The notes beneath the pieces are model-generated. The model did no database searches. It worked only from the letters and a program-made list of their open reading frames with translations, and had not been told where the DNA came from. From Methanosarcinales archaeon (GTDB lineage Archaea > Halobacteriota > Methanosarcinia > Methanosarcinales > Methanocomedenaceae), in assembly GCA_030627385.1 (NCBI GenBank), contig DAOUSF010000001.1, positions 12,077 through 76,076 of the forward strand: a DNA stretch of 64,000 bases, in the 5' to 3' direction. Below, piece after piece: positions 8,362 through 41,592 of this stretch (position 1 is the stretch's first letter; every line of letters starts with the position of its first letter). Made by a program: the position numbers and the translations under genes.

Positions 8362-8789
8362 TGCCTGTATCCAAACGCCAAACAACCTTATATAATAAGG
8401 CAGATAGAGTGGAACAAGCCATACGTGATTGCTTCCAAAGAACAATAACTTACCATGCATCATTCGATCAGTATCTGGAGTGGAGTAAAAAGACATATGA
8501 ACATCCTGACAGGAAAGGATTGACTTCTTACTATGTGGGATATTTACATGGTGTCTCCTCAACCCTCTTTGACCATATTCAAAGGGATTGTGTGGAATGG
8601 ATGATGTATTACACCAACAGAAGGGGCAGGGTCGTTTATGTCCGAAGATGGGAAAGGTTGCCGGCGTATATCAAAGACTCTGGAAACTTTAACGGGAATC
8701 ACTTCTGGAAAAACAAAAGAGGACATAAACGAACTGGGAATCCTAAACCTTTCGGGAATAGTCCTTCTAAAGGAGTTGGAAGAAAATGA
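8361..8789 (+). CDS. hypothetical protein
   Basis: RBS GGAGGAAA; start overlaps the previous stop; 142 aa. Confidence 0.6.
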   Translation: MPVSKRQTTLYNKADRVEQAIRDCFQRTITYHASFDQYLEWSKKTYEHPDRKGLTSYYVGYLHGVSSTLFDHIQRDCVEWMMYYTNRRGRVVYVRRWERLPAYIKDSGNFNGNHFWKNKRGHKRTGNPKPFGNSPSKGVGRK

Positions 8790-9235
8790 AATCCAATATC
8801 ATCTACTTTGGGAAAGAGGTAGTTTTGAGTTGTGATGGTGAATGTTCCAAAGCATGGGGCAGGAACTGGCATGGTAAGAAATGTGGGGAAGCTCCTTCAG
8901 ACCCCGGCATATACGAAGGGAGTAATGCGAAACCTACCGATAAAACACACAATAAATGGTGTGCAAGATCGTGTGAAAGGTCACACTTGATTGGTACGAA
9001 ACCCCTGGACAGTGTAGCAGGAGTGAAGGAATGTATCAACACTATTTATGGTGATACATTCCTAACTCCTGATATTGTAATGCCTGATCCTTGGGTATCC
9101 TGTGTTTGGATAGCAATTGACACCAAGAAAGAAAAGGCAATCGTTGTGTATCTTAAAGAAGAGGGTGCCGAAGAAGTGCCTTATAAAGGTGCTGATTACC
9201 AAAACTATTTATCAATAAGAGGGAATAATGAATAG
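8786..9235 (+). CDS. hypothetical Cys-rich protein
   Basis: RBS AAAGGAG; overlapping stop and start; 149 aa. Confidence 0.6.
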   Translation: MKSNIIYFGKEVVLSCDGECSKAWGRNWHGKKCGEAPSDPGIYEGSNAKPTDKTHNKWCARSCERSHLIGTKPLDSVAGVKECINTIYGDTFLTPDIVMPDPWVSCVWIAIDTKKEKAIVVYLKEEGAEEVPYKGADYQNYLSIRGNNE

Positions 9236-9662
9236 ATACCTTGATCTAAAAAAACAACAGGAAACGGAATTTAATGCATTCCCAATGTTCTTTGCCTTTA
9301 ACAAGGAACAGTTTGCAGATGGAATGAAAAAACTGGGACTGCTTCCTGATCAGCTTGACATGATCTATAAATTTAATGGTGGTGGATATTACAGAAGGTC
9401 CGATGCTAAGGACTTTCATGCTCTCCTCGGGAGACACACAGAGGAAGTGGAGGACGCCATCGTTGCTGATATTAAGGGTGATGGTTATATCTATGAAATG
9501 TTCAGGTATGAACTTGCCAATCATGAATATGGGTATACCTGTGACGATTCTGATACCCTTAATGCGCTGGGGTTGTCCCTGGAAGAGATTGAGGCAAATC
9601 CCGCTCTTAAAGAAGGATTGAAGAATGCCAAAATAACCTGTCATTCTGAATTTATAGGATAA
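9228..9662 (+). CDS. hypothetical protein
   Basis: 144-aa ORF, co-oriented, immediately upstream of the ArdC-like unit. The antisense ORF 9246..9644 is judged a shadow. Confidence 0.6.
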   Translation: MNRYLDLKKQQETEFNAFPMFFAFNKEQFADGMKKLGLLPDQLDMIYKFNGGGYYRRSDAKDFHALLGRHTEEVEDAIVADIKGDGYIYEMFRYELANHEYGYTCDDSDTLNALGLSLEEIEANPALKEGLKNAKITCHSEFIG

Positions 9663-9674
9663 GGGGGTTCTACA

Positions 9675-10049
9675 ATGAAGGATTTTAATGGAAACGTATT
9701 GAAACGGGATGATACTGTGGTGTTTGCTGATAGCAAAGGGAAGTTATTATTAGGAAAAATAGATTGCCTACGTAAAGATAACATTGGCATAATCAGTGAA
9801 CAATCCGCTGGAAACATCACTTACTGGAGAAAGGAAAAAGAGATAGTAAAAATCATTGAGATTCCCCAGGTGGAGAAAATATACATAAAAGCTGACATGT
9901 ATCCCACTGGTTGTGAGCCTGAATGTTTGATCCACGAAGATGAAAAGGGAACTTATTACCTCAGGGATGATGTAAATAAATGGAGAAAGAAAAAATACAA
10001 TCCTCTAAGGGTATCAAAGAAATTGCGGGAGGAAAAATTAAGTGACTAA
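9675..10049 (+). CDS. hypothetical protein
   Basis: RBS AAGGGGG; 124 aa. Confidence 0.6.
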   Translation: MKDFNGNVLKRDDTVVFADSKGKLLLGKIDCLRKDNIGIISEQSAGNITYWRKEKEIVKIIEIPQVEKIYIKADMYPTGCEPECLIHEDEKGTYYLRDDVNKWRKKKYNPLRVSKKLREEKLSD

Positions 10050-10224
10050 AACAGAAAAGGTAATCATGTGTGTTATCATAGTTCTGGTAATGCTTTCTAT
10101 TACCATGATAAGTTATTCCATTATTACAATCAAAAGGCACGGAGGCGTTAATCGGGTCATTATTGAAACGGGAAAAGAAATCATAACCATCAAAAAGCCA
10201 TAGAAAAAAGTTGAAAAAAAACTC

Positions 10225-10254
10225 TTGACAGGTTACGTATTTTTATGTAATAAT
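10225..10254 (+). promoter_or_regulatory. class-1 phage promoter, copy b
   Basis: TTGACA-18 nt-(TGT)AATAAT followed by GTGTATAG. Confidence 0.7.
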
Positions 10255-10300
10255 GTGTATAGTTGAGTATGGAACAAATCATAAGAAAAGGAGATCGAAA

Positions 10301-11155
10301 ATGTCCGATAAAGTTTATACAATTTTACAGGAAAAGATTTTGCAGAAACTTGCCGAGGGAGTTATTCCTTGGAAGAAAAATTGGAACGAATGCGGTGGGT
10401 TTCCCAAGAACATCATTTCCAATAAAGCTTACAAAGGTTTCAACCACATCATGCTTATCTGCCAGGGATTTGCATCCCCTTACTGGATGACCTTTAATCA
10501 GATCAAACAGCTTAAAGGTAAGTTGAAAGAGGGTGAAGGTAAGAACTATGCCATTATCACTTACTGGAAGTTGCTCAAGAGTGAAGACAAGGAAACGGGT
10601 AAAGAAAAGAGTTTCCCAATGATCAGATATTACCGAGTTTACAACTTGGATCAAACTGAGGGGATCACTCCTAAATGGAAAGTTGAAATTCCAAAGTATA
10701 ATAATGACCCAATTGAAAATTGTGAACGGATGCTGGCCGAAATGAGGGAACCCGCCGAAATCATATGGGGAATGAAACCCTGTTATATCTCTGCCAAAGA
10801 TAAAATCGGAATGCCTGAAATGGATCAATTCAAAACTGCCAGTGATTTCTATGATGCCTTGTTTCATGAAACCGCACATAGCACCAAATCAATGCAAAGG
10901 ATGAATCGTGACAAACATTCCTATGCCAAAGAGGAATTGATTGCTGAAATGACATCTTGCTTCCTGTGCGGAATGGCTGGAATTAATCAAGCTGTTATAG
11001 ACAACCAGGCCGCTTACTTAAAAGGATGGGTGGAAAAGATTAAAGGCGAAAACGTAAAGATGATCGTCCAGGCGGCCAGTGAGGCTCAGAAAATTAGTGA
11101 CTGGATACTTAATATAAACGAATTTACCGAAATGAAAAAGGGGGCAGCGGCTTGA
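10301..11155 (+). CDS. ardC: ArdC-like antirestriction protein (ssDNA-binding N-domain plus zincin metallopeptidase domain)
   Basis: The N-terminus ILQKLAEGVIPWKKNW...GFNHIML...WMTFNQIKQLKGKLKEGEGK matches the ArdC N-domain pattern. The C-domain carries HETAHS (HExxH). ATG at 10301 follows AAAGGAGA. Confidence 0.8.
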   Translation: MSDKVYTILQEKILQKLAEGVIPWKKNWNECGGFPKNIISNKAYKGFNHIMLICQGFASPYWMTFNQIKQLKGKLKEGEGKNYAIITYWKLLKSEDKETGKEKSFPMIRYYRVYNLDQTEGITPKWKVEIPKYNNDPIENCERMLAEMREPAEIIWGMKPCYISAKDKIGMPEMDQFKTASDFYDALFHETAHSTKSMQRMNRDKHSYAKEELIAEMTSCFLCGMAGINQAVIDNQAAYLKGWVEKIKGENVKMIVQAASEAQKISDWILNINEFTEMKKGAAA

Positions 11156-11271
11156 GTCCTATTTTAGTTATCCTGGGGATTGTTGGGGCACTTGTTGCCT
11201 CAGCATTCATCCTCATTTACGTAGTTGCCACCGCCAATGACGATATAGACTTTATCCTATAAGGAGTAGCT

Positions 11272-11655
11272 TTGAAGGAATTTAATAACATTCAAATCAC
11301 TGTCCTAAGAAAGGACATGGAGACGGCCTTAAAAGAGGTAGCCAATAAACATGACATCATTATCAACTTGGGAAGGATTACGTATTCCTCCTTTGAATGT
11401 CGCGGAAGTTTTACCAGTGTATGCCAGAAGGATGAGAAAGAGAATATTATCTCTCCAATGGAAAAGGCATACATTGATAGACAGAAATCATCATCAGGAA
11501 TGTTAAATCTGGGTGATACTTTTGAGAGCCGGCGGAGTACTTATACCATCGCTGGATGGAAACCGAAGAATACAAAGTATCCTTTGATTGCAAATAATGA
11601 AGTTGGTCAATCCTATAAATTCGCTGGGAGGTTTGCAATTAAAGATGGCTACTAA
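11272..11655 (+). CDS. hypothetical protein
   Basis: 127-aa ORF with a non-ATG (TTG) start in the track, so the start is uncertain. Confidence 0.5.
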   Translation: MKEFNNIQITVLRKDMETALKEVANKHDIIINLGRITYSSFECRGSFTSVCQKDEKENIISPMEKAYIDRQKSSSGMLNLGDTFESRRSTYTIAGWKPKNTKYPLIANNEVGQSYKFAGRFAIKDGY

Positions 11656-11830
11656 GGTAAAAAGTAAATGTTGGTTTTGCAAGACTTCCGTTGTGTTGGT
11701 ACTGAAAACTCCTGAAAAATACAAAGGAAACGATACGGAATACTATATATGTACTTCTTGCAATGCCGCAAATTCAACTGGTAGAGTAGATGGTGAAATC
11801 AAATCAGGTAAATCAAAAAGGGTGATCTAA
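11645..11830 (+). CDS. hypothetical zinc-ribbon protein
   Basis: MATKVKSKCWFCK...CTSCN; ATG at 11645 within the track ORF 11588..11830. Confidence 0.5.
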   Translation: MATKVKSKCWFCKTSVVLVLKTPEKYKGNDTEYYICTSCNAANSTGRVDGEIKSGKSKRVI

Positions 11831-12051
11831 TGGATCTCAAAACTGCTAAGGGACTAAAACAGGGGCAGGAAATCTGGCACAAGACTTTAAAGAACGCGGA
11901 TGGTACGGCCAGAAAGGCAAAAGTCACATCTGTTAAAACCTGGAAAACAAGACCAGATGAAGTTCTCGTAAATACCAAACGAGGCCTTTATGAATATGGT
12001 GCTGTTGATGAAAAGGAAATACATCTTATTACCAACGTGAAGCCCAAGTAA
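11830..12051 (+). CDS. hypothetical protein
   Basis: 73 aa; start overlaps the previous stop (TAATG). Confidence 0.55.
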   Translation: MDLKTAKGLKQGQEIWHKTLKNADGTARKAKVTSVKTWKTRPDEVLVNTKRGLYEYGAVDEKEIHLITNVKPK

Positions 12052-12077
12052 GGTTCGCTGTATTTTGTCTATTTTAG

Positions 12078-12126
12078 ATCGTTTTGAATTGTTTGATAGT
12101 ATGACATTCAAATAATTCAAAACGAT
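12078..12126. repeat. perfect 13-bp inverted repeat with GATAGTATGACA loop
   Basis: ATCGTTTTGAATT (12078-12090) pairs with AATTCAAAACGAT (12114-12126). It is related to the 5541, 14703 and 29330 elements. Confidence 0.6.
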
Positions 12127-12172
12127 GTAAAAGTGACAAGGTTTCAACTCAAAATCGAAAGGATATAACATT

Positions 12173-12325
12173 ATGAAAAGACTTTTTGAACGGTTTAGAA
12201 AACAATGTGAGGTGTGCTGTTGTTATTCAGGAAATGCAGAAGGGGAAGAAATTGATCCTGATAATGAATGTTCTTTGGGCCATAATATCACAGGTAACAC
12301 AGAATGTGAGGATTTTTCAGAATGA
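12173..12325 (+). CDS. hypothetical small Cys-rich protein (50 aa)
   Basis: MKRLFERFRKQCEVCCCYSG...; the stop overlaps the next start (ATGA). Confidence 0.4.
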   Translation: MKRLFERFRKQCEVCCCYSGNAEGEEIDPDNECSLGHNITGNTECEDFSE

Positions 12326-12549
12326 GTGATAGTACCGAAAAAGTAGAAAAGGCTATTGACCTAATTGAGCAAGCAAGGGAATTGATGAATGATGTGGTAT
12401 CGGGACCATTAGCAGATTACCGAATATGTTCTGAATACTACGCCTATGGTGAGTTTGGTATCCGACAAGCTGGGTGGGGGGGGAAAGGAAATCCCAATGA
12501 TGGTAAGTTACAGGACATCATAGACAAACTGGAAGAGGAGGGACTTTGA
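12322..12549 (+). CDS. hypothetical protein
   Basis: 75 aa, co-oriented, coupled starts and stops. Confidence 0.55.
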   Translation: MSDSTEKVEKAIDLIEQARELMNDVVSGPLADYRICSEYYAYGEFGIRQAGWGGKGNPNDGKLQDIIDKLEEEGL

Positions 12550-12761
12550 AGGATTATAAAAAGAAGTATTACAGGGTGCTTACTACCTTGTGGGTAGTTA
12601 TGATAATTGGTGGTATCTTCCTTTGGAACATTCACAGCACTCTGGATGAAATTGATCAGGAGATTGTTAAAATGGAACAAAGGAAGGAACAAGAACTCAT
12701 CCAGGCATATCATGATGCCGGATGGTTACCTTACGAAAAAACAAAAAGGAATAAAAAATGA
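12546..12761 (+). CDS. hypothetical membrane protein
   Basis: Non-ATG start in the track. One hydrophobic helix, LTTLWVVMIIGGIFLW. Confidence 0.45.
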   Translation: MKDYKKKYYRVLTTLWVVMIIGGIFLWNIHSTLDEIDQEIVKMEQRKEQELIQAYHDAGWLPYEKTKRNKK

Positions 12762-13021
12762 AATTCGATTTTTATGCAGATCCGGGACATGGATGGGTAA
12801 AGGTCCCAAAAAAACTACTAAAAACACTGGTAATTGAAAAGGATATTAGTACCTTTTCTTACATGAAGGGAGTTAATGCTTACCTTGAAGAAGACGGGGA
12901 TCTTAAAAAATTCCTTGATGCAATGAAGATAGCCGGAAAGATTGTTGAGTTCAGAGAACACCACACCGATAAGTCATCTAAAATCAGAAATTATAGAACC
13001 TATAATAAAAATGAAGAATAA
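12758..13021 (+). CDS. hypothetical protein (FYADPGHGW motif)
   Basis: 87 aa, MKFDFYADPGHGWVKVPKKLL. The motif is recalled from other uncharacterised phage proteins. Confidence 0.6.
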   Translation: MKFDFYADPGHGWVKVPKKLLKTLVIEKDISTFSYMKGVNAYLEEDGDLKKFLDAMKIAGKIVEFREHHTDKSSKIRNYRTYNKNEE

Positions 13022-29803: not shown

Positions 29804-29914
29804 ACAAAAGGAATTTTTTAATACACCGACAATCGCAAGTAGCATTTACCAGGAGGAAGAGGATCAGGCAAGAAGGCTCACCCTTTGTTCATGAAACCAT
29901 TAAAGGAGACTAAA

Positions 29915-30409
29915 ATGAAGTATTTTCAAATTGAAGATCATTGGGATGAATTACTTCCCATTTATACTTGTAATCAGGCAACTGAAATTTGGTATAATGA
30001 AATGGAAGCCTATGGTAGAGGGAAAGATGAAGATTATGGATTAACAAACTGCCGTACAAACCCATTAACACCCGAATTAACACCTATGGATTATGATAGC
30101 TGTGATTGGAGACTTAATATAAACGAGGATGGTAGTTGTGGTCCTGTCATAGTAAGACCCGAATTTTGGAAATATGTTTGCCATAGTGCTTGTCATTGGC
30201 TGGTAAATTTAAGTTTATTTGTAGCACAACAATATACCCCTGAGAAACAATGGAGAATTGTTTCGGGTAAAGAACATTCTACTGTTTGGGATGGAGAAGA
30301 CACTTTATGGGATGCTAATTTTTTAGCTTTAGGTATTGATGCTGATGAAGCATGGAAGTTAGCTAATGATGTGCATTATCAACCAAATGAGTACATGCAA
30401 CACCTTTAA
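29915..30409 (+). CDS. hypothetical protein
   Basis: ATG at 29915 after AAAGGAGA; Trp- and Cys-rich; directly upstream of the que cluster. Confidence 0.6.
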   Translation: MKYFQIEDHWDELLPIYTCNQATEIWYNEMEAYGRGKDEDYGLTNCRTNPLTPELTPMDYDSCDWRLNINEDGSCGPVIVRPEFWKYVCHSACHWLVNLSLFVAQQYTPEKQWRIVSGKEHSTVWDGEDTLWDANFLALGIDADEAWKLANDVHYQPNEYMQHL

Positions 30410-30443
30410 GAAGTTTTTAAAATCGGTTAAAAGGAGGTAAATT

Positions 30444-31556
30444 ATGAAAGCATCCATAACTAATGTAATAAAATTTGAGACCGCTCACCAGTTGACTGAC
30501 TCTTACTCTGAGGAAGATAATACCTATACTTGCCCTGTGTGTAATAAGGAAGGAATAAAAAGCATATTTTCTCATTGCAGTAATACAGGTGATAGTGTTC
30601 ATTTAAACTGGATACAAAAATTAAACGATGAAATAAATGAAGAAATTGACAATCTTTTTCCTGATTATATGCAAATGGAAATAAATTTGAAATTGCAGGA
30701 GATTTTACCCACCCTGTCTCCTAATATTATTGCAAATAAGATCAGAAGCAGAGCAAAGGAAACAGGTATAAATACCAGAAAAGTATTAGGGAAATGTAGA
30801 ACTGGGTTAAATAATCCTGTACATACGAAAGGAACAAAGGATAAAATATCTAAATCAGTCAAGAAGAAGTGGGAAGAAGGTTCTTATTCAGATAGAATAA
30901 ATGGAATGCAAGGGAAATTAGGGCCTTTATCAGGAAGATACGATCCATCAATTCATACCATAGAACATAAAGGTCTATATTATTTTAATTCTTTTTTATC
31001 TGAATTTCAAGATATTTCAGTGTGTTCAAGATGTAAGGGTGTTGAAAATAAAATTAATGTACACCACATTGACGAGGACCATAAAAACTTTCTACCGTCA
31101 AATCTTGAGCCCTTGTGTGTGCTCTGTCATATGTCCAATCACTACAAACAAGTTAAGAAGCCATTCGTTACTATAGGAAAAGAATTTACATTTGCGGCGG
31201 CACATCAATTACCAAACCACCAAGGGATGTGTCAATATCTCCATGGACATGAATGGAAGCTTAGAATTGAGTTGAAAAAGAGGGTAGATTTTAAAACAGG
31301 AATGGTAATGGACTTTTCTGATTTGAAAAAAATAGTGAAGGAGCATGTAATATCTATACTTGATCATAACACCTTAAATGAGATAATATATAATCCGACA
31401 GCCGAGAATATCCTAATATGGATCTGGGAAAAACTAATGTTTGAAGGCCTGCTCAAGGGAATTTATAAAATTCATTTATGGGAATCATCCGATAGTGTAG
31501 CAGTACTTGACCAGAAAGGGATGTTATCCGTTTTTACTGAAAAAGGAGTAAAATAA
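30444..31556 (+). CDS. queD: HNH/NUMOD endonuclease module fused in frame to 6-carboxytetrahydropterin synthase QueD
   Basis: Residues about 240-370 form a full QueD (EFTFAAAHQLPNHQGMCQYLHGHEW, LDHNTLNE, PTAENI). Residues 18-239 carry NUMOD3-like GLNNPVHTKGTKDKISKS and HNH NVHHIDEDHKN...CVLCH. Residues 1-17 repeat the QueD start (VIKFETAHQL). Confidence 0.8.
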   Translation: MKASITNVIKFETAHQLTDSYSEEDNTYTCPVCNKEGIKSIFSHCSNTGDSVHLNWIQKLNDEINEEIDNLFPDYMQMEINLKLQEILPTLSPNIIANKIRSRAKETGINTRKVLGKCRTGLNNPVHTKGTKDKISKSVKKKWEEGSYSDRINGMQGKLGPLSGRYDPSIHTIEHKGLYYFNSFLSEFQDISVCSRCKGVENKINVHHIDEDHKNFLPSNLEPLCVLCHMSNHYKQVKKPFVTIGKEFTFAAAHQLPNHQGMCQYLHGHEWKLRIELKKRVDFKTGMVMDFSDLKKIVKEHVISILDHNTLNEIIYNPTAENILIWIWEKLMFEGLLKGIYKIHLWESSDSVAVLDQKGMLSVFTEKGVK

Positions 31557-32215
31557 TGTTTGTAGCTGATATATTTGAATCATTCCACGGAGAAGTGAAT
31601 GGACATCACCAAGGACGAATTGTCACATTCATACGCCTCTCTGGATGTAATCTTAGATGTTCCTATTGTGATACCAAAGAAACATGGGATAAACTTTATG
31701 GGGAAAATCTTAGCCCTCTTCTAATCCTTAACAGAGTTAAAGAATTAGGACATAAACACGTTTGTATTACAGGTGGCGAGCCTTTACTGGATAAGGCGGC
31801 AGTACTGGATTTAATGCATATATTATCAGAGGAAGGGTATCGCATATCCGTTGAAACAAATGGCACTATCAGTATCACTCCTTTTGTTAGATTTGTGGAT
31901 AGCTTTATTATTGATTGGAAAATACCCCCCAGACCGTTTAAAGGAAAGAATCTATTCCTTGAATCTAATTTGGTAAATTTAAGGAATACAGATATTATCA
32001 AGTTTGTGGTTATGGATGAAGATGATGTTATACTGGGAATAAAACTAACGGAAATAATTATCAGAGACAAATATAAATCAAATACTCTGGTTGCTTTTTC
32101 TCCTATTATTTCAGAAGATTTTTTACCAAAGCACTTAGCAAACGCATTGCTTTACCATAAAGCTAAAAACTGTATTTTATCTGTCCAGATTCATAAACTT
32201 ATTGATTTCAAATAA
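31556..32215 (+). CDS. queE: 7-carboxy-7-deazaguanine synthase QueE (radical SAM)
   Basis: FIRLSGCNLRCSYCDT radical-SAM cluster motif and ITGGEPLL. The start is coupled to the queD stop. Confidence 0.85.
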   Translation: MFVADIFESFHGEVNGHHQGRIVTFIRLSGCNLRCSYCDTKETWDKLYGENLSPLLILNRVKELGHKHVCITGGEPLLDKAAVLDLMHILSEEGYRISVETNGTISITPFVRFVDSFIIDWKIPPRPFKGKNLFLESNLVNLRNTDIIKFVVMDEDDVILGIKLTEIIIRDKYKSNTLVAFSPIISEDFLPKHLANALLYHKAKNCILSVQIHKLIDFK

Positions 32216-32279
32216 TGGTCCTGTGCAACATGCCGATATTACACGGATTTAATCTTAATGATTTTTTATTAAAAAGTGC

Positions 32280-32308
32280 TTGACTTCTCATTCATTTTTC
32301 ATTAAGAT
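32280..32308 (+). promoter_or_regulatory. class-2 promoter, copy f
   Basis: TTGACT-17 nt-TAAGAT, preceded by the A/T tract attttttattaaaaagtgc. Confidence 0.55.
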
Positions 32309-32378
32309 GTATTTAAATTGTTCAAGAGTGAAAAAGCAGTTCAAGAGTAAATTTAATTAATTTTTAAGGAGAAAGAAA

Positions 32379-32948
32379 ATGGCAAAACTGACAGACGCCC
32401 AGAAAGCAGAAATGGCAAAATTAAAAGCGATTCCCAATGATTTGATGAAATTATCCATTGCATCCCTCAATACCTTCTTGACCAGCAAGGAAAAAGACAA
32501 AATGCCCAAAGCAAAATCCAAGGGCGAAGCCGTAAAACTTTTTACCGATGCAATTGCAGGCCTGCTTGAAGCTGACCTGGGTGAAGAAATTCCGGAAGAT
32601 GTTGCAACTTTTTATAACGACCATGTTGTGGGTGACGATGCAGAGGCTGGTGATACAGGTGCTGATGATGGAAAAGCCGCCCCCAAGCCCAAAGCTGACA
32701 AGACCAAAACAACCAAACCCCGGAAAACCAAAGCGGAAATACAAGCCCGGTATGATGCAATCTCTGCCATGATCGTCACAGGTAAACATACCAAAAAGGA
32801 AATCGTGGATGAAGTTGCTCCCAAGTTTCCGGATGTCACGGTCAGCACCATCTCCACATTTGTGCAGGACTGTATGAATGTTAAATACAACAAATTGCCC
32901 AAGTTGACGGTTAAGGCCGAAGACGGAAAACTCTCCTTCGCCAAATAG
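32379..32948 (+). CDS. Lys/Ala-rich putative DNA-binding protein (paralog of the 3116..3625 C-domain)
   Basis: RBS AAGGAGAAAG. Central AAPKPKADKTKTTKPRKTK tract. The C-domain is shared with the 3116 ORF. The gene has its own promoter and terminator. Confidence 0.75.
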   Translation: MAKLTDAQKAEMAKLKAIPNDLMKLSIASLNTFLTSKEKDKMPKAKSKGEAVKLFTDAIAGLLEADLGEEIPEDVATFYNDHVVGDDAEAGDTGADDGKAAPKPKADKTKTTKPRKTKAEIQARYDAISAMIVTGKHTKKEIVDEVAPKFPDVTVSTISTFVQDCMNVKYNKLPKLTVKAEDGKLSFAK

Positions 32949-32985
32949 TCCTGCCCCTATGACATTTAATGAGTAACCCCGAAAA

Positions 32986-33028
32986 GGCGGAGCGTCCCTC
33001 AATTCCAACAGCTCCGCCTTTTTTATTT
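32986..33028 (+). terminator. rho-independent terminator
   Basis: GGCGGAGC (32986-32993) pairs with GCTCCGCC (33011-33018) and is followed by TTTTTTATTT. Confidence 0.8.
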
Positions 33029-33043
33029 CAAAAGGAAAACGAT

Positions 33044-33718
33044 ATGAATGGAGCCGTTGTATTGTTAAGTGGAGGACAAGATTCTACCACGTCATTATTT
33101 TGGGCTTTGTCCAAATATGATGACGTTTTTGCCTTGATTCTTGACTATGGACAGAGGCACAGGATAGAAATAGAATCAGCAAAGAAAATTGCTGAATTGG
33201 CTGGTGTCGAGTATATGGTAATTGACCTTAACTTCTTTAAAGAAATAGGCAACTCTGCCTTGATTGGGGATGTATCAGAAGTAAATGAACCGCATTCCTG
33301 TGATTCAAATCTGCCCGCATCATTTGTCCCTGGAAGAAATCTGATTTTTATCACTATCGCCTCTATGGTAGCATATAAGAGAGGACTGAACGCTGTTGTT
33401 ACTGGTGTTTGCCAAACAGATTATTCGGGATATCCTGATTGCAGGAACGCCACAATGAGGGCATTAAATGAGGCAATCGTGAAGGGCTTGGATAAAGCTA
33501 TCTTGATCAGTACACCTTTGATGTGGTTGACAAAAGAGGAAACTGTCAGACTGGCTCAGTCATTTGAAGGCTGTATGGAAGCTCTGGCATATTCTCATAC
33601 TTGTTATAATGGAGAGTATCCTCCCTGTATGCATTGTCCCTCATGCTGTTTAAGGACAAGAGGATTCAAAGAAGCAGGTGTAAGGGATCCACTGATTGTG
33701 AGGTACTATGATAAGTAG
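33044..33718 (+). CDS. queC: 7-cyano-7-deazaguanine synthase QueC
   Basis: MNGAVVLLSGGQDSTT (SGGxDS PP-loop). C-terminal Cys cluster CYNG..PPCMHCPSCCLRTRGF. The ATG at 33044 lies downstream of the terminator. Confidence 0.9.
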   Translation: MNGAVVLLSGGQDSTTSLFWALSKYDDVFALILDYGQRHRIEIESAKKIAELAGVEYMVIDLNFFKEIGNSALIGDVSEVNEPHSCDSNLPASFVPGRNLIFITIASMVAYKRGLNAVVTGVCQTDYSGYPDCRNATMRALNEAIVKGLDKAILISTPLMWLTKEETVRLAQSFEGCMEALAYSHTCYNGEYPPCMHCPSCCLRTRGFKEAGVRDPLIVRYYDK

Positions 33719-34319
33719 AAAATATCCAGGTGCCATTCTTGCCAATGCATCAAAGCATGACCGAATCAAAGCATTGGTACATGATCTTTTGGTGGAAATC
33801 AATGAAAATCCAAATAGAACGGGATTGAAAGATACCCCTGAACGTGTTGCCAAAATGTACTCTGAAATATTCAGAGGATACGATGATTCACAGAAACCGA
33901 ACCTTACTGTTTTTCCAAATGACGATGATGGGCTTTCCTTCAAAGGTATGATAATTGATCAAGGATACTTTTTCAGTCATTGTGAGCATCATATGGTTCC
34001 CTTCTTTGGTCATTATTACTTCGGATATATTCCCGATAAAACACTGATTGGCGCCTCAAAGATTGGTAGATTGATCAATTTCCATTCAGCCAAATTGCAG
34101 ATAGCGGAGCGCCTGTGTCGTGTTGTGATAGATGACATTGAGGAGGCTGTGAAACCTCAGGGTTGTATTCTCATAATGACTGCCCGCCATTTGTGTAAAG
34201 AAATGAGAGGAGTCAAGATGTTTAACAGCCCGTTTGAGGCGGACGATGCACGTGGTTGCTTCCTTGAAAATCATGCAGGATGTAAAGATGAATTTATTAG
34301 CAGAATAGGAATTAAATAA
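33708..34319 (+). CDS. folE: GTP cyclohydrolase I FolE
   Basis: TGLKDTPERVAKMY, CEHHMVPFFG, KLQIAERL. Confidence 0.9.
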   Translation: MISRKYPGAILANASKHDRIKALVHDLLVEINENPNRTGLKDTPERVAKMYSEIFRGYDDSQKPNLTVFPNDDDGLSFKGMIIDQGYFFSHCEHHMVPFFGHYYFGYIPDKTLIGASKIGRLINFHSAKLQIAERLCRVVIDDIEEAVKPQGCILIMTARHLCKEMRGVKMFNSPFEADDARGCFLENHAGCKDEFISRIGIK

Positions 34320-34784
34320 ATGAAACATAAACATCTTGGATCAAACAAAACGGACTATCAGTTCTCCGAGCCCTCGGCTGATCTTCTGGACACATTCAAA
34401 AACAAACACCCTAATATCTATCTGGTACCATTTGTTATGCCCCGGGATGAGTTCACAAGTCTTTGTCCCGTCACGAATCAGCCTGACCAGGCAAAGATTG
34501 AAATAATCTATGTGCCTTTCGATGATATGGTTGAAAGTAAGTCCTTGAAACTGTATCTTTTCTCCTTTAGAAATAACGGAGAGTTTCATGAGGATGTTAT
34601 TAACAGAATAGCCAAGGATCTGTATTCAGCAATGAAGCCCTTGTATATTCGTGTTTATGGTGACTTTGCTCCACGTGGGGGTATTGCAATCAAACCCATG
34701 GTTGAATTGTGGAATTCCAATGACCCTCATGATACAAAGCTGATTGAAAATTATGTGAAAATGTGGGACAGGAAAAGGAATTAA
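34320..34784 (+). CDS. queF: NADPH-dependent 7-cyano-7-deazaguanine reductase QueF (unimodular YkvM type)
   Basis: [14 protein letters not shown] (catalytic Cys), QueF motif [17 protein letters not shown], and FAPRGGIAI. Confidence 0.9.
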
Positions 34785-34785
34785 T

Positions 34786-36699
34786 ATGAAAACTCCAGGC
34801 AGAGAAGATGTTTCTCTAATGCTTGATTCCGGTGCTTTCTCTGCCTGGATGAAACAAGAGGAGATATCAGTCGAGGACTACGGTAAGTTCCTTCAGCAAC
34901 ATGGAAATGATTTTGATCTGATTGTTAACCTTGATGTAATTCCGGGCAAATTCGGGCAGAAGGAAATACCCGAAGCTGAAATGATCAAGTCCATTGAACA
35001 AGGCTGGAGAAATTATTACAGACTAATTGAAATGGGAGTCCCTAAGAATAAGCTCCTTCATGTATTTCACCAAGGAGAGCCCTTTCACTATCTTGAAAAA
35101 ATGGTAAAGGAGATGGAATATATAGGAATCTCTCCTGCAAATGATAGAACCACAAAAGAAAAGAAAAAGTGGCTGGACGAGTGCATGAAATATATTGTGG
35201 ATAGTAAGGGAAAAGCCCAAATCAAATTCCACGGGTTCGGTATGACTTCTTTGCACTTGATCTGGCGTTATCCTTGGTTCTGTATGACAGAAGAGGATCA
35301 TGAGGTATTAACAAAAACTGGATGGAAATTTAGAGAAGATTTATCCATAGGGGAGGAGGTATTAACATTCGATAAAGGAGCATCTAAGTGGGAACGTATT
35401 TTAGATATTCCTACATTTCCAGTAAAAGATATTGATATCAATGTAATGGAAAATAGAAACTTTTGTGCCAAAGTTACAGATAATCATAATTGGATTACTT
35501 GTCCTCAATATAATAGAGGAAATAATTGGAAGTGGAAAACAACACACACACTGAACTCCAATGATTGTATACCTAGAATAGGAAAATACACTTTCCCTGA
35601 AACTAAAATATATATGGACAGTTTCATTGAATTATTGGCTTGGTTTTGGACTGATGGAACAATCAACAAAAGGGAAAAATATAATCAGGATAGTATTTCT
35701 ATTTATCAATCTGAAAGTGCTAATTCCGATAAATGTAAGATGATCCAGGATTTGTTAAATTACAGTGGAGAACCGCATTGTAAAAGTGTGTCAAAAGAGG
35801 ACAATTTAGCAAATTTTGAAATGTATGGAGACATTACTAAGGCTATATTAGAATTTGCTCCATTTAAAAAACTACCTTTAGATTTTATATTTGATCTTAC
35901 TAAGGAACAGTTACAGAAATTTGTAGATATTTGTGTCCTGGCTGATGGCACAGACACAAAACTGGTAAGACGTGATTCATTTAATATTACAGTTTCAAGA
36001 CAGGTGAAAAAAGACAATCTTGAGGTTCTCCGTATAGCTTGTTTATTGTTGGGTATACCTACTTCTATTTCTTATGGAAACCAAGGGTATAAGACTTTAC
36101 AATCATCCTCAGTTGATTATGTGTATAATCATTCACTTAAAAAACACAAGGAAAAATATACAGGAAATATATGGTGTTTACAGGTGCCAAGTAAAGCTTT
36201 TTTTACAAGATGTGACAATAAGATATATGTCACAGGAAACTCAATTGACAGTACTACATGGGTTTTGGTTGGTGCTATGGGGGGTGTTATGATGCCTAAA
36301 ATTAAGTATGGCAGATACACTTACAGGCAATCACCAATCATACTTCCCATCACCACAAAGAACGACATAAAAAAACCTTTCCATTATCAAAATCTATCAG
36401 AAATAGAACAAAGCAAGGTGCAACGATACTTTAATGATCGTGGCTTTGATGTCAAAACCCTGGAAACGGAAGGAATGGAGAGAGACAGAGCCAACATGAG
36501 GTTCTTTCTTGATCTTGAACAAACCTTGACTGATACAAAGGTGTACTTTGCTGGTAACTTTCCCATGCTTCATAAGATGGAGAGAGAGTTCAAGACAATG
36601 GATTTGGCTTTAAAAATAACTGATAAGTGGAGAAGGCTGGGCTCTTATTATCACCAGAACTATCTCCTTAAATTACTTGATCTAAAACGGAGGAAATAA
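34786..36699 (+). CDS. dpdA: DpdA-like DNA-guanine transglycosylase candidate interrupted by an intein
   Basis: The extein (about 317 aa) has LMLDSGAFSAW, GISPAN, FHGFG and YPWF|SIDSTTW. It lies immediately downstream of folE-queF. The assignment rests on context plus recalled TGT/DpdA-like motifs. Confidence 0.65.
   Translation: MKTPGREDVSLMLDSGAFSAWMKQEEISVEDYGKFLQQHGNDFDLIVNLDVIPGKFGQKEIPEAEMIKSIEQGWRNYYRLIEMGVPKNKLLHVFHQGEPFHYLEKMVKEMEYIGISPANDRTTKEKKKWLDECMKYIVDSKGKAQIKFHGFGMTSLHLIWRYPWFCMTEEDHEVLTKTGWKFREDLSIGEEVLTFDKGASKWERILDIPTFPVKDIDINVMENRNFCAKVTDNHNWITCPQYNRGNNWKWKTTHTLNSNDCIPRIGKYTFPETKIYMDSFIELLAWFWTDGTINKREKYNQDSISIYQSESANSDKCKMIQDLLNYSGEPHCKSVSKEDNLANFEMYGDITKAILEFAPFKKLPLDFIFDLTKEQLQKFVDICVLADGTDTKLVRRDSFNITVSRQVKKDNLEVLRIACLLLGIPTSISYGNQGYKTLQSSSVDYVYNHSLKKHKEKYTGNIWCLQVPSKAFFTRCDNKIYVTGNSIDSTTWVLVGAMGGVMMPKIKYGRYTYRQSPIILPITTKNDIKKPFHYQNLSEIEQSKVQRYFNDRGFDVKTLETEGMERDRANMRFFLDLEQTLTDTKVYFAGNFPMLHKMEREFKTMDLALKITDKWRRLGSYYHQNYLLKLLDLKRRK
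35281..36240 (+). mobile_element. intein (320 aa) with LAGLIDADG homing-endonuclease domain in the DpdA-like gene
   Basis: It starts with Cys (CMTEEDHEVLTKTGW). Block B is TDNH. LAGLIDADG motifs are LLAWFWTDGT and CVLADGT. Block F/G is IWCLQVP...KIYVTGN, followed by Ser as the +1 residue. Confidence 0.8.
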
Positions 36700-37914: not shown

Positions 37915-40900
37915 ATGGGATTTTTCACTAAATCCCAGTTATCTAAGCGGTCCGAGGTCAAGGTTGATGTCAATGACTTGGAATCGGATTGCTTGGCTTG
38001 TGGGTTATTCAAAGACACAATCCATCCAAAGATGGAATACTCAGGACAAGGTCAAAAGAAGATTCTCATTATAGGTGAATTTTCAAGTGACGAAGATGAC
38101 CAATATGGTCAACATTTCTATGGAGAACGAGGCGATCCATTAAGACAGCAATTAAGGTTCAATAATGTCAATATGAACAAGGATTGCTGGAAAGTTAACG
38201 CTGTTCGATGCAATCCTGATGGACTTAATTTACCCAGTCCTGGCCAGGTTCAAAACTGCTTCCCGTATATCAAAAAAATGATCAAACAGTTAAAACCTAA
38301 ATTGATACTTCTTCTGGGTGATTTGGCTATTTCTTCATTGTACGGAAAGGATTTTTCAAACAGAAGCATACACAGATGGAGAAAGTATGTTATACCCGAT
38401 CAAGAGTTCAGTTGTAATGTTATTCCTCTATATCATCCCTATCATCTTTTCCGTCAATCCAAGAAAAAGAAGAAGAAAGACAAAAACCTCGAAAGTGTAT
38501 TCAATCGGGATCTAAAATTTGCTCTCAGACAGTTGGAACGCCCGGTTTTAACGACAAAGAACTATGAAAGCAATGTCACACTGTTAACAGACTTCAACCG
38601 CGTTAAAAAGCTGTTAAATCGAATCCTCAAGCGTAAATCAAAAATCTATTTTGATTATGAGTCCACAGGACTAAAGCCTTTCAGAAAAGGCCATAAGATT
38701 GTGACCATTGGTGTTGCTGTATCTGCCTCAAAAGCGTTTGCGTTTCCTTATCAGTGGAAAAGTTTCTGGACTCCCTCTGAATTAAAGGTTATAAAGAAAC
38801 TCTGGAAAAAGATTCTCAGGGATGATGAAATCCTAAAGATGGCGCACAATTGCTTTTCAGGTGATACAAAATATATAACTAAAGAAGGATTGAAGTCCTT
38901 TATTGATACAGAGAACACTACCCAAACAGTGTGGACAAAGGAAGGATGGAAGGATGCTAAAGTTAAATGTTATGGAAAAGATCATCTTTCTAAAATAGTA
39001 GTAGGCCCTGAACTTAGAAGTAGATCCAAGATTAAAAGAACTATTCACAGCACTGAAAATCACCGTTGGATTGTAAAAAGAAAATTCAATCATTGTTACC
39101 CTAATCCCTCTACCTTTAAAACTATAGAGGTTACCACAGACCAATTGAAATTAAGGGATAATATAATTTCGGAAATGCCCGAATTCACAATTGATCAAAA
39201 TACAGAGGCTTTTAGACATGGATTAATCCTTGCGGATGGAGGTCGTTCCAGTAAACATTCCCTTCATTTTCAAATCAGACTATGTGGTAAAAAAGAAAAG
39301 TATAAAGACATTTTTCCTAAATATACGTACCCCCTTTCTGCTAATGGTGATCCGGTTGTGAATTACTATAAAGCCTCTTGTGATATGAAGAAAGTTCCTG
39401 AGAATCCTACGGCAGAGTATGTAGCAAACTTTATAGCAGGATGGGATGCTGGTGACGGCACAGATTCAGCAACTGGAAGATCAAGAGTCATAACTACCTT
39501 TAATAAAGAACACGCTACATGGTTAAAGGACAATGCAGAACTTGGTGGATGGAAATGTACTGGATTTTCAGAACATATTAATTCGAAAGACTTTGATGGG
39601 AATTATATAGACCCGCACCCTTACTGGATGATAATATTAACAAAGGAGAAAGTAAACTGGACAGTAAAAGAAATAAAACACAAGGATAGATACGAGAAAG
39701 TGTACTGTGTTTCTTTACCAAAAGAGGAATTTACTCTCCAATATGGTATTTACACAAGGAATTGCAAATTTGAGCAAGTGTGGTCAAAGGTTATGTTCAA
39801 TGTAATGCCTAAGATTCACTTTGATACTATGATGGCAGAACATATCTTGGACAATAGATCAGCCTCAACAGGTTTGAAATTTCAGACGTTCATAAGGTTC
39901 GGTGTTAAGCCCTATGATAAAGATATTGCTCCCTTCCTAAAAGCAAAGAATGGAGAATTTAATACCATAGAAAAAGCACCATTCAAAGAGTTATTAACAT
40001 ACAATGGACTTGACTGCATTTATGGATGGATGGTATACGATAGACAGATCCTTGAAATAACCAAAAGACGGGACGTAAAGGATGCAATGAAAAGCGTTCT
40101 CGGTGAGGTTGATGCTCCCGAAAAAAGCCTACTTGGTGCTTACAATTTCTTCATGCGTGGTAACGAACAGATGGCTATTATCCAGCTTAACGGGATCAAT
40201 ATGGATTCCATTTATTATCAAAAAGCTGAAAAGAATCTGGAAAAGAAAGTCAAGGAGTTAAAGCACGGATTGGAGAATGGTCGTGAAGCGGAAATGTTTC
40301 ATAAAATGTTCGGACGACCAATCAGGATCACATCCAATCAAGATCTCGGAAAACTATTCTATGAAGTTCTGGGAAAAGATCCCGTCTATACTGCTAAAGG
40401 GGGGTATAAGACAGATAAAATGACTCTGGAGAGTTTGAATCTACCTTATGTAAAAAACCTCCTTAAAATGAAAAAGTACGAGAAAGCCAAGGGAACTTAT
40501 CTTGGTCAGTTTGCAAGAGAGATATTTAGGACAAAGATGTATCCATTCTGGGATCTTAATATTCCTGTCAGTTATAGGAGTTCATCATCAAAACCAAACT
40601 TTCAGAATATTCCTAAACGTGATGCAGAGATAAAGGCAATCATTAGAATGGGAATTGTTCCGAAAAAGGGATGTGTGTTAAGTGAAATTGATTTTTCAGG
40701 TGCGGAGGTTATAACTTCCGCCACTTACCACAAGGATCCAACATTTATTGCCTACTTGACAGAAAAAGATGCATCAGGTGAGTTGATAAATGATATGCAT
40801 AGAGATAATGCAACTGACCTTTTGATGTTACCTCCTGATATGCTTGAGAATCCTAAGTATTCAAGGGACCAGAAAAAGTTAATTAAAAAGATTCGATTCT

Positions 40901-41592
40901 TTGCCAAGAACAATTGGACTTTTGCTCAGTTCTACGGTGATTGGTTTGGTTCGTGTGCTCCTATGTTCTGGGAGAATGTTATTGAGGTGGACTTAGAACT
41001 TCCTAATGGCATGACTTGCCGAGAATGGCTTGAAGAAAAAGGCATCTATGAACTCGGAGAAGTAAAAGATGGAACTCCCACAGAGGGAAGCTTCATGGAG
41101 CATTGTGCCCATGTCCAAGAAAAGATGTGGAATGAACGATTTCCTGTATATACTCAGTGGAAGAAGGATATAGTTGAGAAATATAGAGAACATGGTTTTA
41201 TTCCCAATCATTTCGGTTTCAGATTCACAGGATATATGTCCGATAATCAGTGTACAAACTATCCCATCCAGTCAGCAAGTTTCCATCTGTTGGTTCATAC
41301 TCTGATTGAGGTACAGAAGTTCATTGATAAAAATAACCTGAAAACAAAGATAGTTGGGCAAATTCATGATAGTATTATCAGCAATGTTCCTGAAAATGAG
41401 ATCAAATTCTACCATGCAGGTGTTAACAAGATTGTAAAAGGCCTGATGAATGAATTTAAGTGGTTGATAATTCCAATGGAAATCGAAGCTGAAATAACCA
41501 AGTTAAGAGAAGATGGAGGAAACTTTTCTGACCTTAGAGAAGGTGACCCTGATAATATGGATTATGAAACAATCTGGAAGGAGGCAGCATGA
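37915..41592 (+). CDS. family A DNA polymerase with N-terminal UDG-family-4-like domain, 3'-5' exonuclease domain and an intein
   Basis: UDG-like IIGEFSSDEDD..FYGERGDPL, PLYHPYH. Exo I FDYESTGL and Exo II AHN|CKFEQVW. Pol motifs A (IDFSGAEV), B (RFFAKNNWTFAQFYG) and C (QIHDSI). Confidence 0.9.
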   Translation: MGFFTKSQLSKRSEVKVDVNDLESDCLACGLFKDTIHPKMEYSGQGQKKILIIGEFSSDEDDQYGQHFYGERGDPLRQQLRFNNVNMNKDCWKVNAVRCNPDGLNLPSPGQVQNCFPYIKKMIKQLKPKLILLLGDLAISSLYGKDFSNRSIHRWRKYVIPDQEFSCNVIPLYHPYHLFRQSKKKKKKDKNLESVFNRDLKFALRQLERPVLTTKNYESNVTLLTDFNRVKKLLNRILKRKSKIYFDYESTGLKPFRKGHKIVTIGVAVSASKAFAFPYQWKSFWTPSELKVIKKLWKKILRDDEILKMAHNCFSGDTKYITKEGLKSFIDTENTTQTVWTKEGWKDAKVKCYGKDHLSKIVVGPELRSRSKIKRTIHSTENHRWIVKRKFNHCYPNPSTFKTIEVTTDQLKLRDNIISEMPEFTIDQNTEAFRHGLILADGGRSSKHSLHFQIRLCGKKEKYKDIFPKYTYPLSANGDPVVNYYKASCDMKKVPENPTAEYVANFIAGWDAGDGTDSATGRSRVITTFNKEHATWLKDNAELGGWKCTGFSEHINSKDFDGNYIDPHPYWMIILTKEKVNWTVKEIKHKDRYEKVYCVSLPKEEFTLQYGIYTRNCKFEQVWSKVMFNVMPKIHFDTMMAEHILDNRSASTGLKFQTFIRFGVKPYDKDIAPFLKAKNGEFNTIEKAPFKELLTYNGLDCIYGWMVYDRQILEITKRRDVKDAMKSVLGEVDAPEKSLLGAYNFFMRGNEQMAIIQLNGINMDSIYYQKAEKNLEKKVKELKHGLENGREAEMFHKMFGRPIRITSNQDLGKLFYEVLGKDPVYTAKGGYKTDKMTLESLNLPYVKNLLKMKKYEKAKGTYLGQFAREIFRTKMYPFWDLNIPVSYRSSSSKPNFQNIPKRDAEIKAIIRMGIVPKKGCVLSEIDFSGAEVITSATYHKDPTFIAYLTEKDASGELINDMHRDNATDLLMLPPDMLENPKYSRDQKKLIKKIRFFAKNNWTFAQFYGDWFGSCAPMFWENVIEVDLELPNGMTCREWLEEKGIYELGEVKDGTPTEGSFMEHCAHVQEKMWNERFPVYTQWKKDIVEKYREHGFIPNHFGFRFTGYMSDNQCTNYPIQSASFHLLVHTLIEVQKFIDKNNLKTKIVGQIHDSIISNVPENEIKFYHAGVNKIVKGLMNEFKWLIIPMEIEAEITKLREDGGNFSDLREGDPDNMDYETIWKEAA
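38851..39762 (+). mobile_element. intein (304 aa) with LAGLIDADG domain inside the Exo II motif of the polymerase
   Basis: It starts CFSGDTKYITKEG. Block B is TENH. LAGLIDADG motifs are GLILADGG and FIAGWDAGDGT. It ends VYCVSLP...GIYTRN, followed by Cys as the +1 residue. Confidence 0.85.

Follow-up and report, generated by a model that had tools for sequence, protein, structure and literature searches.

The question raised by the locus described here is how an intein that breaks a catalytic exonuclease motif of a DNA polymerase, and that lacks a penultimate histidine, might splice, and from which residue the reaction might start. The locus lies in a 64,000-nucleotide stretch of DNA (positions 12,077 to 76,076, forward strand, of contig DAOUSF010000001.1 in assembly GCA_030627385.1, assigned to a Methanosarcinales archaeon), which was analyzed as a whole and is termed the window below. 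A gene for a phage family A DNA polymerase in this window contains a 304-residue insert, and a DpdA-like gene contains a second one. We are confident that the insert in the polymerase is a mobile LAGLIDADG intein, inserted in frame directly after Asn312 of the Exo II motif, and we infer that it splices. Its most interesting aspect is that it combines Cys1 with a WCT triplet, i.e. Trp, Cys and Thr at positions B:12, F:4 and G:5 of the splicing blocks, and that it has natural relatives which begin with Pro (Pro1) instead. By sequence definition it is a class-1-type intein with a WCT triplet.

The open reading frame (ORF) of the polymerase precursor is continuous, with no interruption. Pfam and NCBIfam scans place a uracil-DNA glycosylase (UDG) domain at residues 45-192, a weak DNA_pol_A_exo1 match at residues 231-332 and PF00476 from residue 775, and precomputed Pfam assignments report PF01612 in homologues of the polymerase. 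The intein segment translates as CFSGDTKY...TENH...GLILADGG...AGWDAGDGT...GIYTRN and is followed by CKFEQVW, so that the split point falls in frame between Asn and the next Exo II residue (AHN/CKFEQVW, the slash here and below marking a splice junction); the spliced product is predicted to comprise 921 residues. A homologue search with the polymerase returned 111 relatives, of which about 60 are 880-920 residues long and lack the insert. These intein-free proteins display an uninterrupted AHN[x]KFE[DEQ].W, for example KILRDDEILKMAHNGKFEQIWSKVMFNV in P0003. The closest of them (P0002, P0003 and P0005, at about 80% identity) read KILRDDEILKMAHN[AG]KFEQ[IV]WSKVMFNV in the region where the window has ...KMAHN/intein/CKFEQVWSKVMFNV, and AHN[AGS]KFEQ[IV]W is unbroken in intein-free homologues that are up to 80% identical. 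When the intein is removed, FDYES, HNCKFE and YNGLD follow one another as Exo I, II and III, and the resulting extein can be aligned with the Klenow fragment (FDYES with FDTET, AHNCKFE with GQNLKYD) and with the exonuclease 7r0t (YHNAAYD). The Exo II motif of the Klenow fragment contributes a metal ligand, Asp424, and the alignment thus puts the intein 3 residues ahead of the catalytic acidic residue. The first-pass annotation, made from the sequence alone, had proposed a 304-residue LAGLIDADG intein that splits the HNxKFE motif; the translation agrees exactly, the motifs are present, the fold is that of an intein, and both the continuous intein-free homologues and the alignments to Klenow and 7r0t restore the motif. 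No other DNA polymerase turned up in the scanned parts of the window, and the one described here is just 22-24% identical to any cultured-phage polymerase.

The residues needed at the intein junctions, namely Cys1, His71, Asn304 and Cys+1, are all present and are conserved in relatives, and the LAGLIDADG residues Asp129 and Asp202 are invariant across 11 aligned inteins. A structure predicted from an 11-sequence alignment (mean predicted local distance difference test score 89, predicted template-modeling score 0.86) has the LAGLIDADG helices at residues 119-129 and 188-202. Its best fold matches in the PDB are TliVMA, PI-SceI, PhoVMA and PI-PfuI (E = 9e-12 to 1e-7); mini-inteins and the Hedgehog autoprocessing domain come next. 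In the model, a HINT fold carries a two-motif LAGLIDADG endonuclease domain. PI-SceI, VMA and PI-PfuI share this architecture and are the best structural matches, but they are only 11-16% identical in sequence, are canonical class 1 inteins and have His-Asn termini. At the sequence level these affinities are well concealed: a PDB search with the polymerase intein alone gave no match at E <= 10, and matches emerged only with profiles of endonuclease-deleted versions of the intein. Likewise, only 2 proteins came out of a word-indexed homologue search with the intein by itself, whereas an exhaustive HMMER search made the family visible, with 949 cluster representatives at E <= 1e-3. Intein and exteins differ little in GC content (0.356 and 0.38, respectively).

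Conservation was counted in 110 complete relatives among the top 150 of the HMMER list. Cys1 and Asn G:7 are present in all 110, Cys F:4 in 109, Thr G:5 in 106, His B:10 in 89 and Trp B:12 in 84, and the +1 residue is Cys in 93 and Ser in 17. The sequence signature of the family, which is large and mainly metagenomic, consists of Cys1, the block motifs A-T-x-N-H-R-W (B), V-[YF]-C (F) and T-[G/other]-N (G), and a Cys or Ser at +1. Arg B:11 (NHRW) occurs in 90 of the relatives counted, with Gly (HGW) in its place in three Pro1 variants from ALNN and ALQN sites. In a family devoid of both assisting histidines, this Arg is a candidate for a compensating or covarying catalytic residue.

The WCT triplet, which the first-pass annotation had not mentioned, is present in both inteins of the window: TENH-R-W, VYCVS and YT-R-N in the polymerase, and TDNH-N-W, IWCLQ and VT-G-N in the DpdA-like protein. 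Comparison of an endonuclease-deleted profile with solved inteins assigns the Trp to B:12 (Phe in DnaE, 7qil) and the Cys to F:4 (the Asp of VYD), and W73, C286 and T302 coincide with the engineered WCT of gp41-1_WCT (6riz). The polymerase intein has the features that mark class 1, Cys1 and TxxH (T68-E-N-H71). It lacks the residues that assist splicing in this class, with Cys rather than Asp at F:4, Glu rather than His at F:13 and Arg rather than His at G:6; exceptions at these three positions have been documented (PMC4031507, PMC5050341). Class 3, as originally defined, has no Ser, Thr or Cys nucleophile at the N-terminus (PMC2807308). Assignment of the window intein to class 3 so defined was rejected, given that Cys1 is present; two further traits also differ from that class, Cys at +1 (often Ser in allelic inteins) and Thr at B:7.

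The two inteins were also correctly said by the first-pass annotation to lack a penultimate His, their C-termini being Thr-Arg-Asn and Thr-Gly-Asn. These ends are indeed non-canonical, but the rarity implied by that term was overstated, as non-His residues are the rule in both families and at most other intein sites of the polymerase family. Of the 110 relatives, 77 have Gly at G:6 and no more than 6 have His there; His at F:13 is present in only 19. No G:6 His was found in the 26 relatives at Exo II-type sites or in the 43 parsed DpdA-site alleles, which all end in TGN, and at other sites of the polymerase family G:6 is Lys or Gly, with His at two sites only. Hence, judged by sequence, the absence of the penultimate His is a family trait and not an oddity. 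There is ample precedent for this state. In mycobacteriophage inteins the penultimate His is poorly conserved, with Gly, Lys or Ser in its stead, and an intein with Gly splices better than its Gly-to-His mutant (Kelley et al., PMC5050341); the H340A mutation in the WCT-bearing Bethlehem DnaB intein has minimal effect (PMC2807308); and the AceL NrdHF class 3 intein, without His at F:13 and G:6, splices within minutes (PMC7891396). The notion that the missing His signals decay was rejected, since it is absent family-wide while the nucleophiles are perfectly conserved.

The natural relatives with Pro1 bear directly on the role of the first residue. Five of them (P0100, P0142, P0198, P0219 and P0247) reside at ribonucleotide reductase sites that also hold Cys1 alleles, and they retain Trp B:12, Cys F:4, Thr or Ser G:5 and Cys+1; in P0100 and P0247 the NHRW...C...TGN signature is complete. 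By BLAST, P0198 and P0219 are nearest to Cys1 inteins, P0142 to Cys1 and Pro1 inteins alike, and P0100 and P0247 to each other, and from this pattern it seems that Cys1 was lost more than once. By sequence definition the Pro1 relatives are class-3-type, with Cys+1. In these members Cys F:4 would have to be capable of initiating the reaction, and their existence probably means that the block F Cys can start splicing in this family. To our knowledge, Cys+1 in a class-3-type intein had previously been reported for one intein only, Bvi IcmO.

Among the closest known systems, the class 3 inteins of mycobacteriophage Bethlehem DnaB, M. smegmatis DnaBi1 and M. chimaera DnaB1 are likewise phage-associated and carry the same WCT at B:12, F:4 and G:5. 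In the Bethlehem prototype the penultimate His is also dispensable (H340A, PMC2807308), and Pro1 is found both there and in some members of the present family. In contrast to class 3 inteins, the window intein keeps Cys1, Thr B:7 (TxxH) and Cys+1, is lodged in an exonuclease motif and not in the P-loop of a helicase or ATPase, and displays no detectable sequence affinity to the solved members of that class, which has been described as monophyletic (PMC3196547). The AceL NrdHF split class 3 intein resembles that of the window in being metagenomic and phage-like and in having Cys F:4, Thr G:5 and no His at F:13 or G:6 (PMC7891396), but it differs in being split, in having Ala1 and Met at B:12 and in lacking an endonuclease. 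Class 1 mycobacteriophage inteins, such as that of the Bethlehem gp51 recombination directionality factor with its penultimate Gly, share Cys1, LAGLIDADG motifs and the replacement of the penultimate His by Gly, Lys or Ser; they also reside in proteins of replication and DNA metabolism and splice efficiently (PMC5050341). They differ in their host proteins and sequence family, and WCT has not been described for them. The best PDB profile matches are the DnaE split inteins (7qil, E = 7e-7) and gp41-1 (6riz, E = 1e-4). The DnaE inteins also do without the penultimate His (IASN or IAAN) and gp41-1 has Thr G:5, but these are mini or split inteins with Asp F:4, and the WCT of 6riz is engineered and non-splicing (PMC7664689). 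Members of the same family in a different host gene are the NrdD inteins of Vibrio phage V6Aob, Klebsiella phage vB_KpM_FBKp34 and Morganella phage MP1. Metagenomic NrdD inteins (P0101, P0105 and P0113) belong to it too, and have WCT, Cys1 and TGN/C.

With these relationships in hand, the candidate routes for the first step can be weighed. We lean somewhat towards initiation at Cys1, by the usual N-to-S acyl shift of the class 1 route, because Cys1 is invariant in the Exo II-site and the DpdA-site alleles. A good deal less probable, in our view, is obligate class 3 chemistry, in which the acyl group would pass on to Cys+1 while Cys1 is retained but dispensable; mixed or other routes make up the remainder. 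Obligate class 3 chemistry has in its favor that the WCT triplet lies exactly at B:12, F:4 and G:5 and hardly varies within either of the two intein families of the window, and that five Pro1 relatives occur at ribonucleotide reductase sites of Cys1 alleles, with P0100 and P0247 otherwise keeping the signature. Tori and Perler are said to have extended class 3 in 2011 to WCT inteins with Ser1 or Cys1. The triplet is, moreover, strongly tied to the class 3 mechanism, with three WCT inteins bearing Ser1 or Cys1 having been listed as under test (Tori et al. 2010, PMC2807308). Yet the occurrence of Cys1 in all 110 relatives and all parsed DpdA-site alleles argues for its use. Thr B:7 (TENH) is kept, whereas class 3 inteins generally lack it, as in the DxxH of Msm DnaBi1 (PMC6195587), and few class 3 inteins have Cys at +1 (PMC5222942). 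Two family profiles, built from 7 and from 36 members, match class 1 inteins in the PDB (DnaE, gp41-1 and Ssp DnaB) and no solved class 3 intein at E <= 10, and among the fold matches 6bs8 and 6riy, both of class 3, come after class 1 mini-inteins. Cys F:4 also accompanies Cys1, in this case without the Trp and Thr, at three other sites of the polymerase family, and grafting WCT onto the class 1 intein gp41-1 did not give class 3 splicing (PMC7664689). We also entertain, tentatively, a third possibility, under which the two window inteins would belong to a very large and essentially undescribed family of phage inteins that stands mechanistically between class 1 and class 3. In such a family Cys1 and Cys F:4 would both be active, through a relay or dual routes, and Cys1 would have given way to Pro1 repeatedly at ribonucleotide reductase sites; its signature would be Cys1 with WCT and Arg B:11, with Asn at -1 and with F:13 and G:6 both lacking His.

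Two further explanations concern the fate of the precursor rather than the order of the nucleophiles. Splicing could be redox-gated, with disulfides among Cys1, Cys286 and Cys+1 holding the polymerase inactive under oxidizing conditions and thereby acting as a switch on phage replication. This idea is compatible with either order of the nucleophiles, and is encouraged by the conservation of three cysteines at the catalytic center, by the position of the intein within a catalytic motif of a replicative polymerase, and by the catalytic F:4 Cys of Msm DnaBi1, whose disulfide pauses splicing under H2O2 (PMC6195587). We nevertheless regard it as improbable: for the polymerase intein it is an analogy with another intein, the +1 residue is often Ser in allelic inteins so that a Cys1/Cys+1 pair is not required, and insertion into a conserved motif is fully explained by conservation of the homing site, with no need of a regulatory role. 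The intein might, alternatively, be dead or decaying, so that the polymerase exists only in an unspliced form, exonuclease-defective or inactive, or retains the insert as a permanent domain. The absence of both the penultimate and the F:13 His, a Pfam Intein_splicing score under the threshold and the decay of the endonuclease in one allele (P0011) might be read in this way. However, none of the splicing nucleophiles is damaged, nor is His B:10, and these residues are conserved among alleles with exteins down to 35% identical, both LAGLIDADG Asp residues are intact, and inteins without these histidines splice well (PMC5050341, PMC7891396). The unspliced state would, furthermore, leave Exo II broken 3 residues ahead of its catalytic acidic residue in the only DNA polymerase found in the scanned parts of the window. 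A dead intein thus appears very improbable.

Several considerations weigh against an active intein that starts at Cys1. The Pro1 relatives indicate that Cys1 is dispensable in at least some family members, and sequence leaves both Cys1 and Cys F:4 eligible as the first nucleophile. The Pfam Intein_splicing model scores the polymerase intein below its cut-off (22.9 vs 35.8 bits), and neither window intein has an NCBIfam or PHROGs match. G:6 varies among R, K, S and G, which makes this position an unlikely substitute for the penultimate His. Splicing, the order of nucleophiles and homing are, in addition, deduced by comparison rather than from experiment.

If the preferred reading, initiation at Cys1, is adopted, the following course of events can be proposed. 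Translation would yield a 1225-residue precursor with a split exonuclease fold, from which the HINT domain would excise the 304-residue intein, joining ...AHN to CKFE...; this ligation would restore Exo II and release a 921-residue polymerase. Cys1 would start the reaction by an N-to-S acyl shift, and Cys286, the invariant residue of block F, would relay the acyl group to Cys+1 or may itself be able to start splicing, with Asn cyclization assisted by residues other than a penultimate His. The endonuclease, with both catalytic Asp residues kept, would cut intein-less polymerase alleles during co-infection, leading to the copying of the intein into them (homing).

The pattern of inheritance is in keeping with mobility. 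The closest polymerase homologues (80% identity) are intein-free, whereas in distant ones an extein identity of 33-36% goes along with an intein identity of 54-55%, and this points to horizontal movement between polymerase genes. Exo II-site alleles were found at the identical position in six other polymerases; they start with CF[ST]G.T.Y[IL]T and end with G[IV]YT[RKS]N/[SC], and all seven alleles of this polymerase family end in YT[RKS]N/[SC]. In the Exo II-site allele of P0011 some 30 residues that separate the two LAGLIDADG motifs are gone, together with the first catalytic Asp (GATFATRS), and all splicing residues are kept; this decay of the endonuclease would be as expected from the homing cycle. 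Both junctions of the polymerase intein carry AATTGC (38845-38856 and 39757-39768), leaving its DNA boundaries ambiguous by 6 bp. The -1 residue is Asn in 97 of the 110 relatives, over at least 8 host-protein sites (HN/, ALNN/, ALQN/, AGFN/, WEN/, LMN/ and others); it could reflect a chemical requirement at this position, a preference of the endonuclease for certain central bases, or ectopic insertion by way of microhomology. The polymerase family itself (UDG, exonuclease and family A polymerase; P0001-P0069) is a hot spot for inteins, which occupy no fewer than 10 different sites in it, among them two in the glycosylase domain, Exo II, one 27 residues past Exo II, RS/SS.PNFQN, motif A (EIDF/SGAEV), ITS[VA]/, DMHRD/ and PIQG/. 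P0011 has three inteins and several other members have two.

The same kind of site is used well beyond this polymerase family. The 26 closest relatives outside it sit at HN/[CS]x[FY][DE], and a Pfam scan of ten of them recognized seven family A polymerases without the glycosylase domain, one with it, a DnaQ/RNase T-type exonuclease (P0124) and one protein without a Pfam domain (P0112). To go by these flanks, Exo II is a well-used homing site in metagenomes, including many unrelated family A polymerases. P0112 and P0131 are proteins of about 510 residues with a HELTH metalloprotease-like motif and no Pfam domain, and harbor an intein 37-40% identical to that of the window at GRYHN/SKF; the flank is like that of Exo II although the host protein is unrelated, and this suggests that the intein homed ectopically to a site of similar sequence. 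Ribonucleotide reductases (class II, class I-like and class III) harbor other relatives. The 50,697 cultured-phage records yielded only six relatives, all 25-28% identical and at least three of them in annotated NrdD genes, and no Exo II-site allele. On inteins in the exonuclease domain of family A polymerases, the literature offered only the general remark that inteins occur in some genes for bacterial DNA polymerase I (PMC4760082), so that the insertion site appears to be new as far as the literature could be searched, while the kind of element is known. In 2009 the combination of Cys1 with WCT was a documented rarity; among phage metagenomes it is evidently common.

The second intein of the window, in the DpdA-like gene, has Cys1 and the WCT triplet as in the polymerase intein; WCT is found in 43 of 43 DpdA-site alleles, and Cys1 is invariant in all of those parsed; the -1 residue at this site is Phe, Tyr or His. 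Intein-free DpdA-like homologues, of about 360 residues, read RYPW[YF]S[VI]DS across the junction. The first-pass annotation had found the two window inteins not obviously similar and had attributed them to independent invasions. The dissimilarity holds in a pairwise BLAST comparison, which is insignificant (E = 0.044), but not at the profile level: the family profile of the polymerase intein, which matches the polymerase ORF at E = 1.7e-92, also matches the DpdA intein at E = 9e-8, spanning blocks B to F and both LAGLIDADG motifs, and the signature Cys1, T.NH.W, [YW]C and T-x-N is common to both. By these sequence measures they are distant relatives that belong to separate deep allelic lineages. 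That they are recent copies of each other was rejected in view of the pairwise E-value and the deep allelic family of each, as were additional inteins of this family in the window, where the profile matches only these two ORFs and Pfam finds no Hint domain in the other large ORFs. Independent invasions are supported by the separate allelic lineages and by a related phage, L002, which is syntenic and free of both inteins, with a DpdA-like protein of 321 residues and a polymerase of 920 residues; its natural intein-less polymerase site reads ...GCACATAAT/GGCAAGTTTGAACAG... In L002 (ENA ERZ23498442 scaffold_94, 103 kb; 8027-12763) the order QueD, QueE, QueC, FolE, QueF, DpdA-like, clamp-like and polymerase is kept.

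Table 1. Features of the polymerase and DpdA-like genes and of their inteins (window coordinates)
Feature	Position	Strand	Details
Polymerase precursor gene, 1225 aa	37915..41592	+	UDG family 4, 3'-5' exonuclease, intein, family A polymerase; Pfam, NCBIfam (PolI, UDG family 4)
Exo I motif IYFDYESTGL	38644..38673	+	Alignment with Klenow FDTETDSL
Exo II N-terminal half LKMAHN	38833..38850	+	Asn312 = -1 residue of splice junction
Intein, 304 aa (precursor residues 313-616)	38851..39762	+	HINT splicing domain and inserted LAGLIDADG homing endonuclease (predicted)
Block A CFSGDTKYITKEG	38851..38889	+	Cys1 at 38851-38853; Cys1 in 110/110 relatives
Block B IHSTENHRWIV	39043..39075	+	Thr68 = B:7, His71 = B:10, Arg72 = B:11, Trp73 = B:12 (39067-39069)
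First LAGLIDADG motif FRHGLILADGG	39211..39243	+	Asp129 present; G124, D129, G130 invariant
Second LAGLIDADG motif FIAGWDAGDGT	39430..39462	+	Asp202 present; G197, D202, G203 invariant
Block F KVYCVSLPKEEFTL	39697..39738	+	Cys286 = F:4 (39706-39708); F:13 = Glu, not His
Block G YGIYTRN	39742..39762	+	Thr302 = G:5, Arg303 = G:6 (no penultimate His), Asn304 = G:7
+1 Cys and Exo II C-terminal half CKFEQVW	39763..39783	+	Glu of KFE = equivalent of Exo II acidic metal ligand
Exo III motif LTYNGLDCIY	39994..40023	+	Motif order in spliced extein
Family A polymerase domain of C-extein	40237..41589	+	PF00476; NCBIfam
DpdA-like (queuine tRNA-ribosyltransferase-like) gene, 637 aa	34786..36699	+	phrog_887, E = 3.4e-53, spliced extein
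Second intein, 320 aa (residues 166-485)	35281..36240	+	CMTEEDHEVL...TDNHNW...IWCLQVP...YVTGN/S; penultimate Gly

The label DpdA-like appears reasonable for the gene in question because of its phrog_887 match and its neighbors, as homologues of QueD, QueE, QueC, FolE and QueF are encoded upstream of it. Positions 29885-36699 hold the full 7-deazaguanine (preQ0/preQ1) cluster formed by these five genes right upstream of the DpdA-like gene. This arrangement implies that the phage DNA would carry a 7-deazaguanine modification, possibly of the preQ1 type since QueF is present. The QueD (6-pyruvoyl-tetrahydropterin synthase) domain occupies residues 244-356 of a 370-residue ORF (30444-31556), whose N-terminal 240 residues have no Pfam match.

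For annotation, these results mean that the polymerase and DpdA-like genes should be described as intein-containing precursors, and that an intein family of at least 949 cluster representatives is nearly missed by curated profiles. For technology, useful splicing tools could come from compact inteins that accept Asn at -1 and need no assisting His. The pairs of Cys1 and Pro1 inteins at the same sites, with WCT and without the assisting His, constitute a natural system in which the evolution of class 3 and the substitute for the His may be studied. If the family does stand between the two classes, class-3-type splicing would have arisen more than once by ordinary divergence from WCT-bearing class 1 inteins, which would counter both the view of a single origin of class 3 and its proposed convergence from a cysteine protease.

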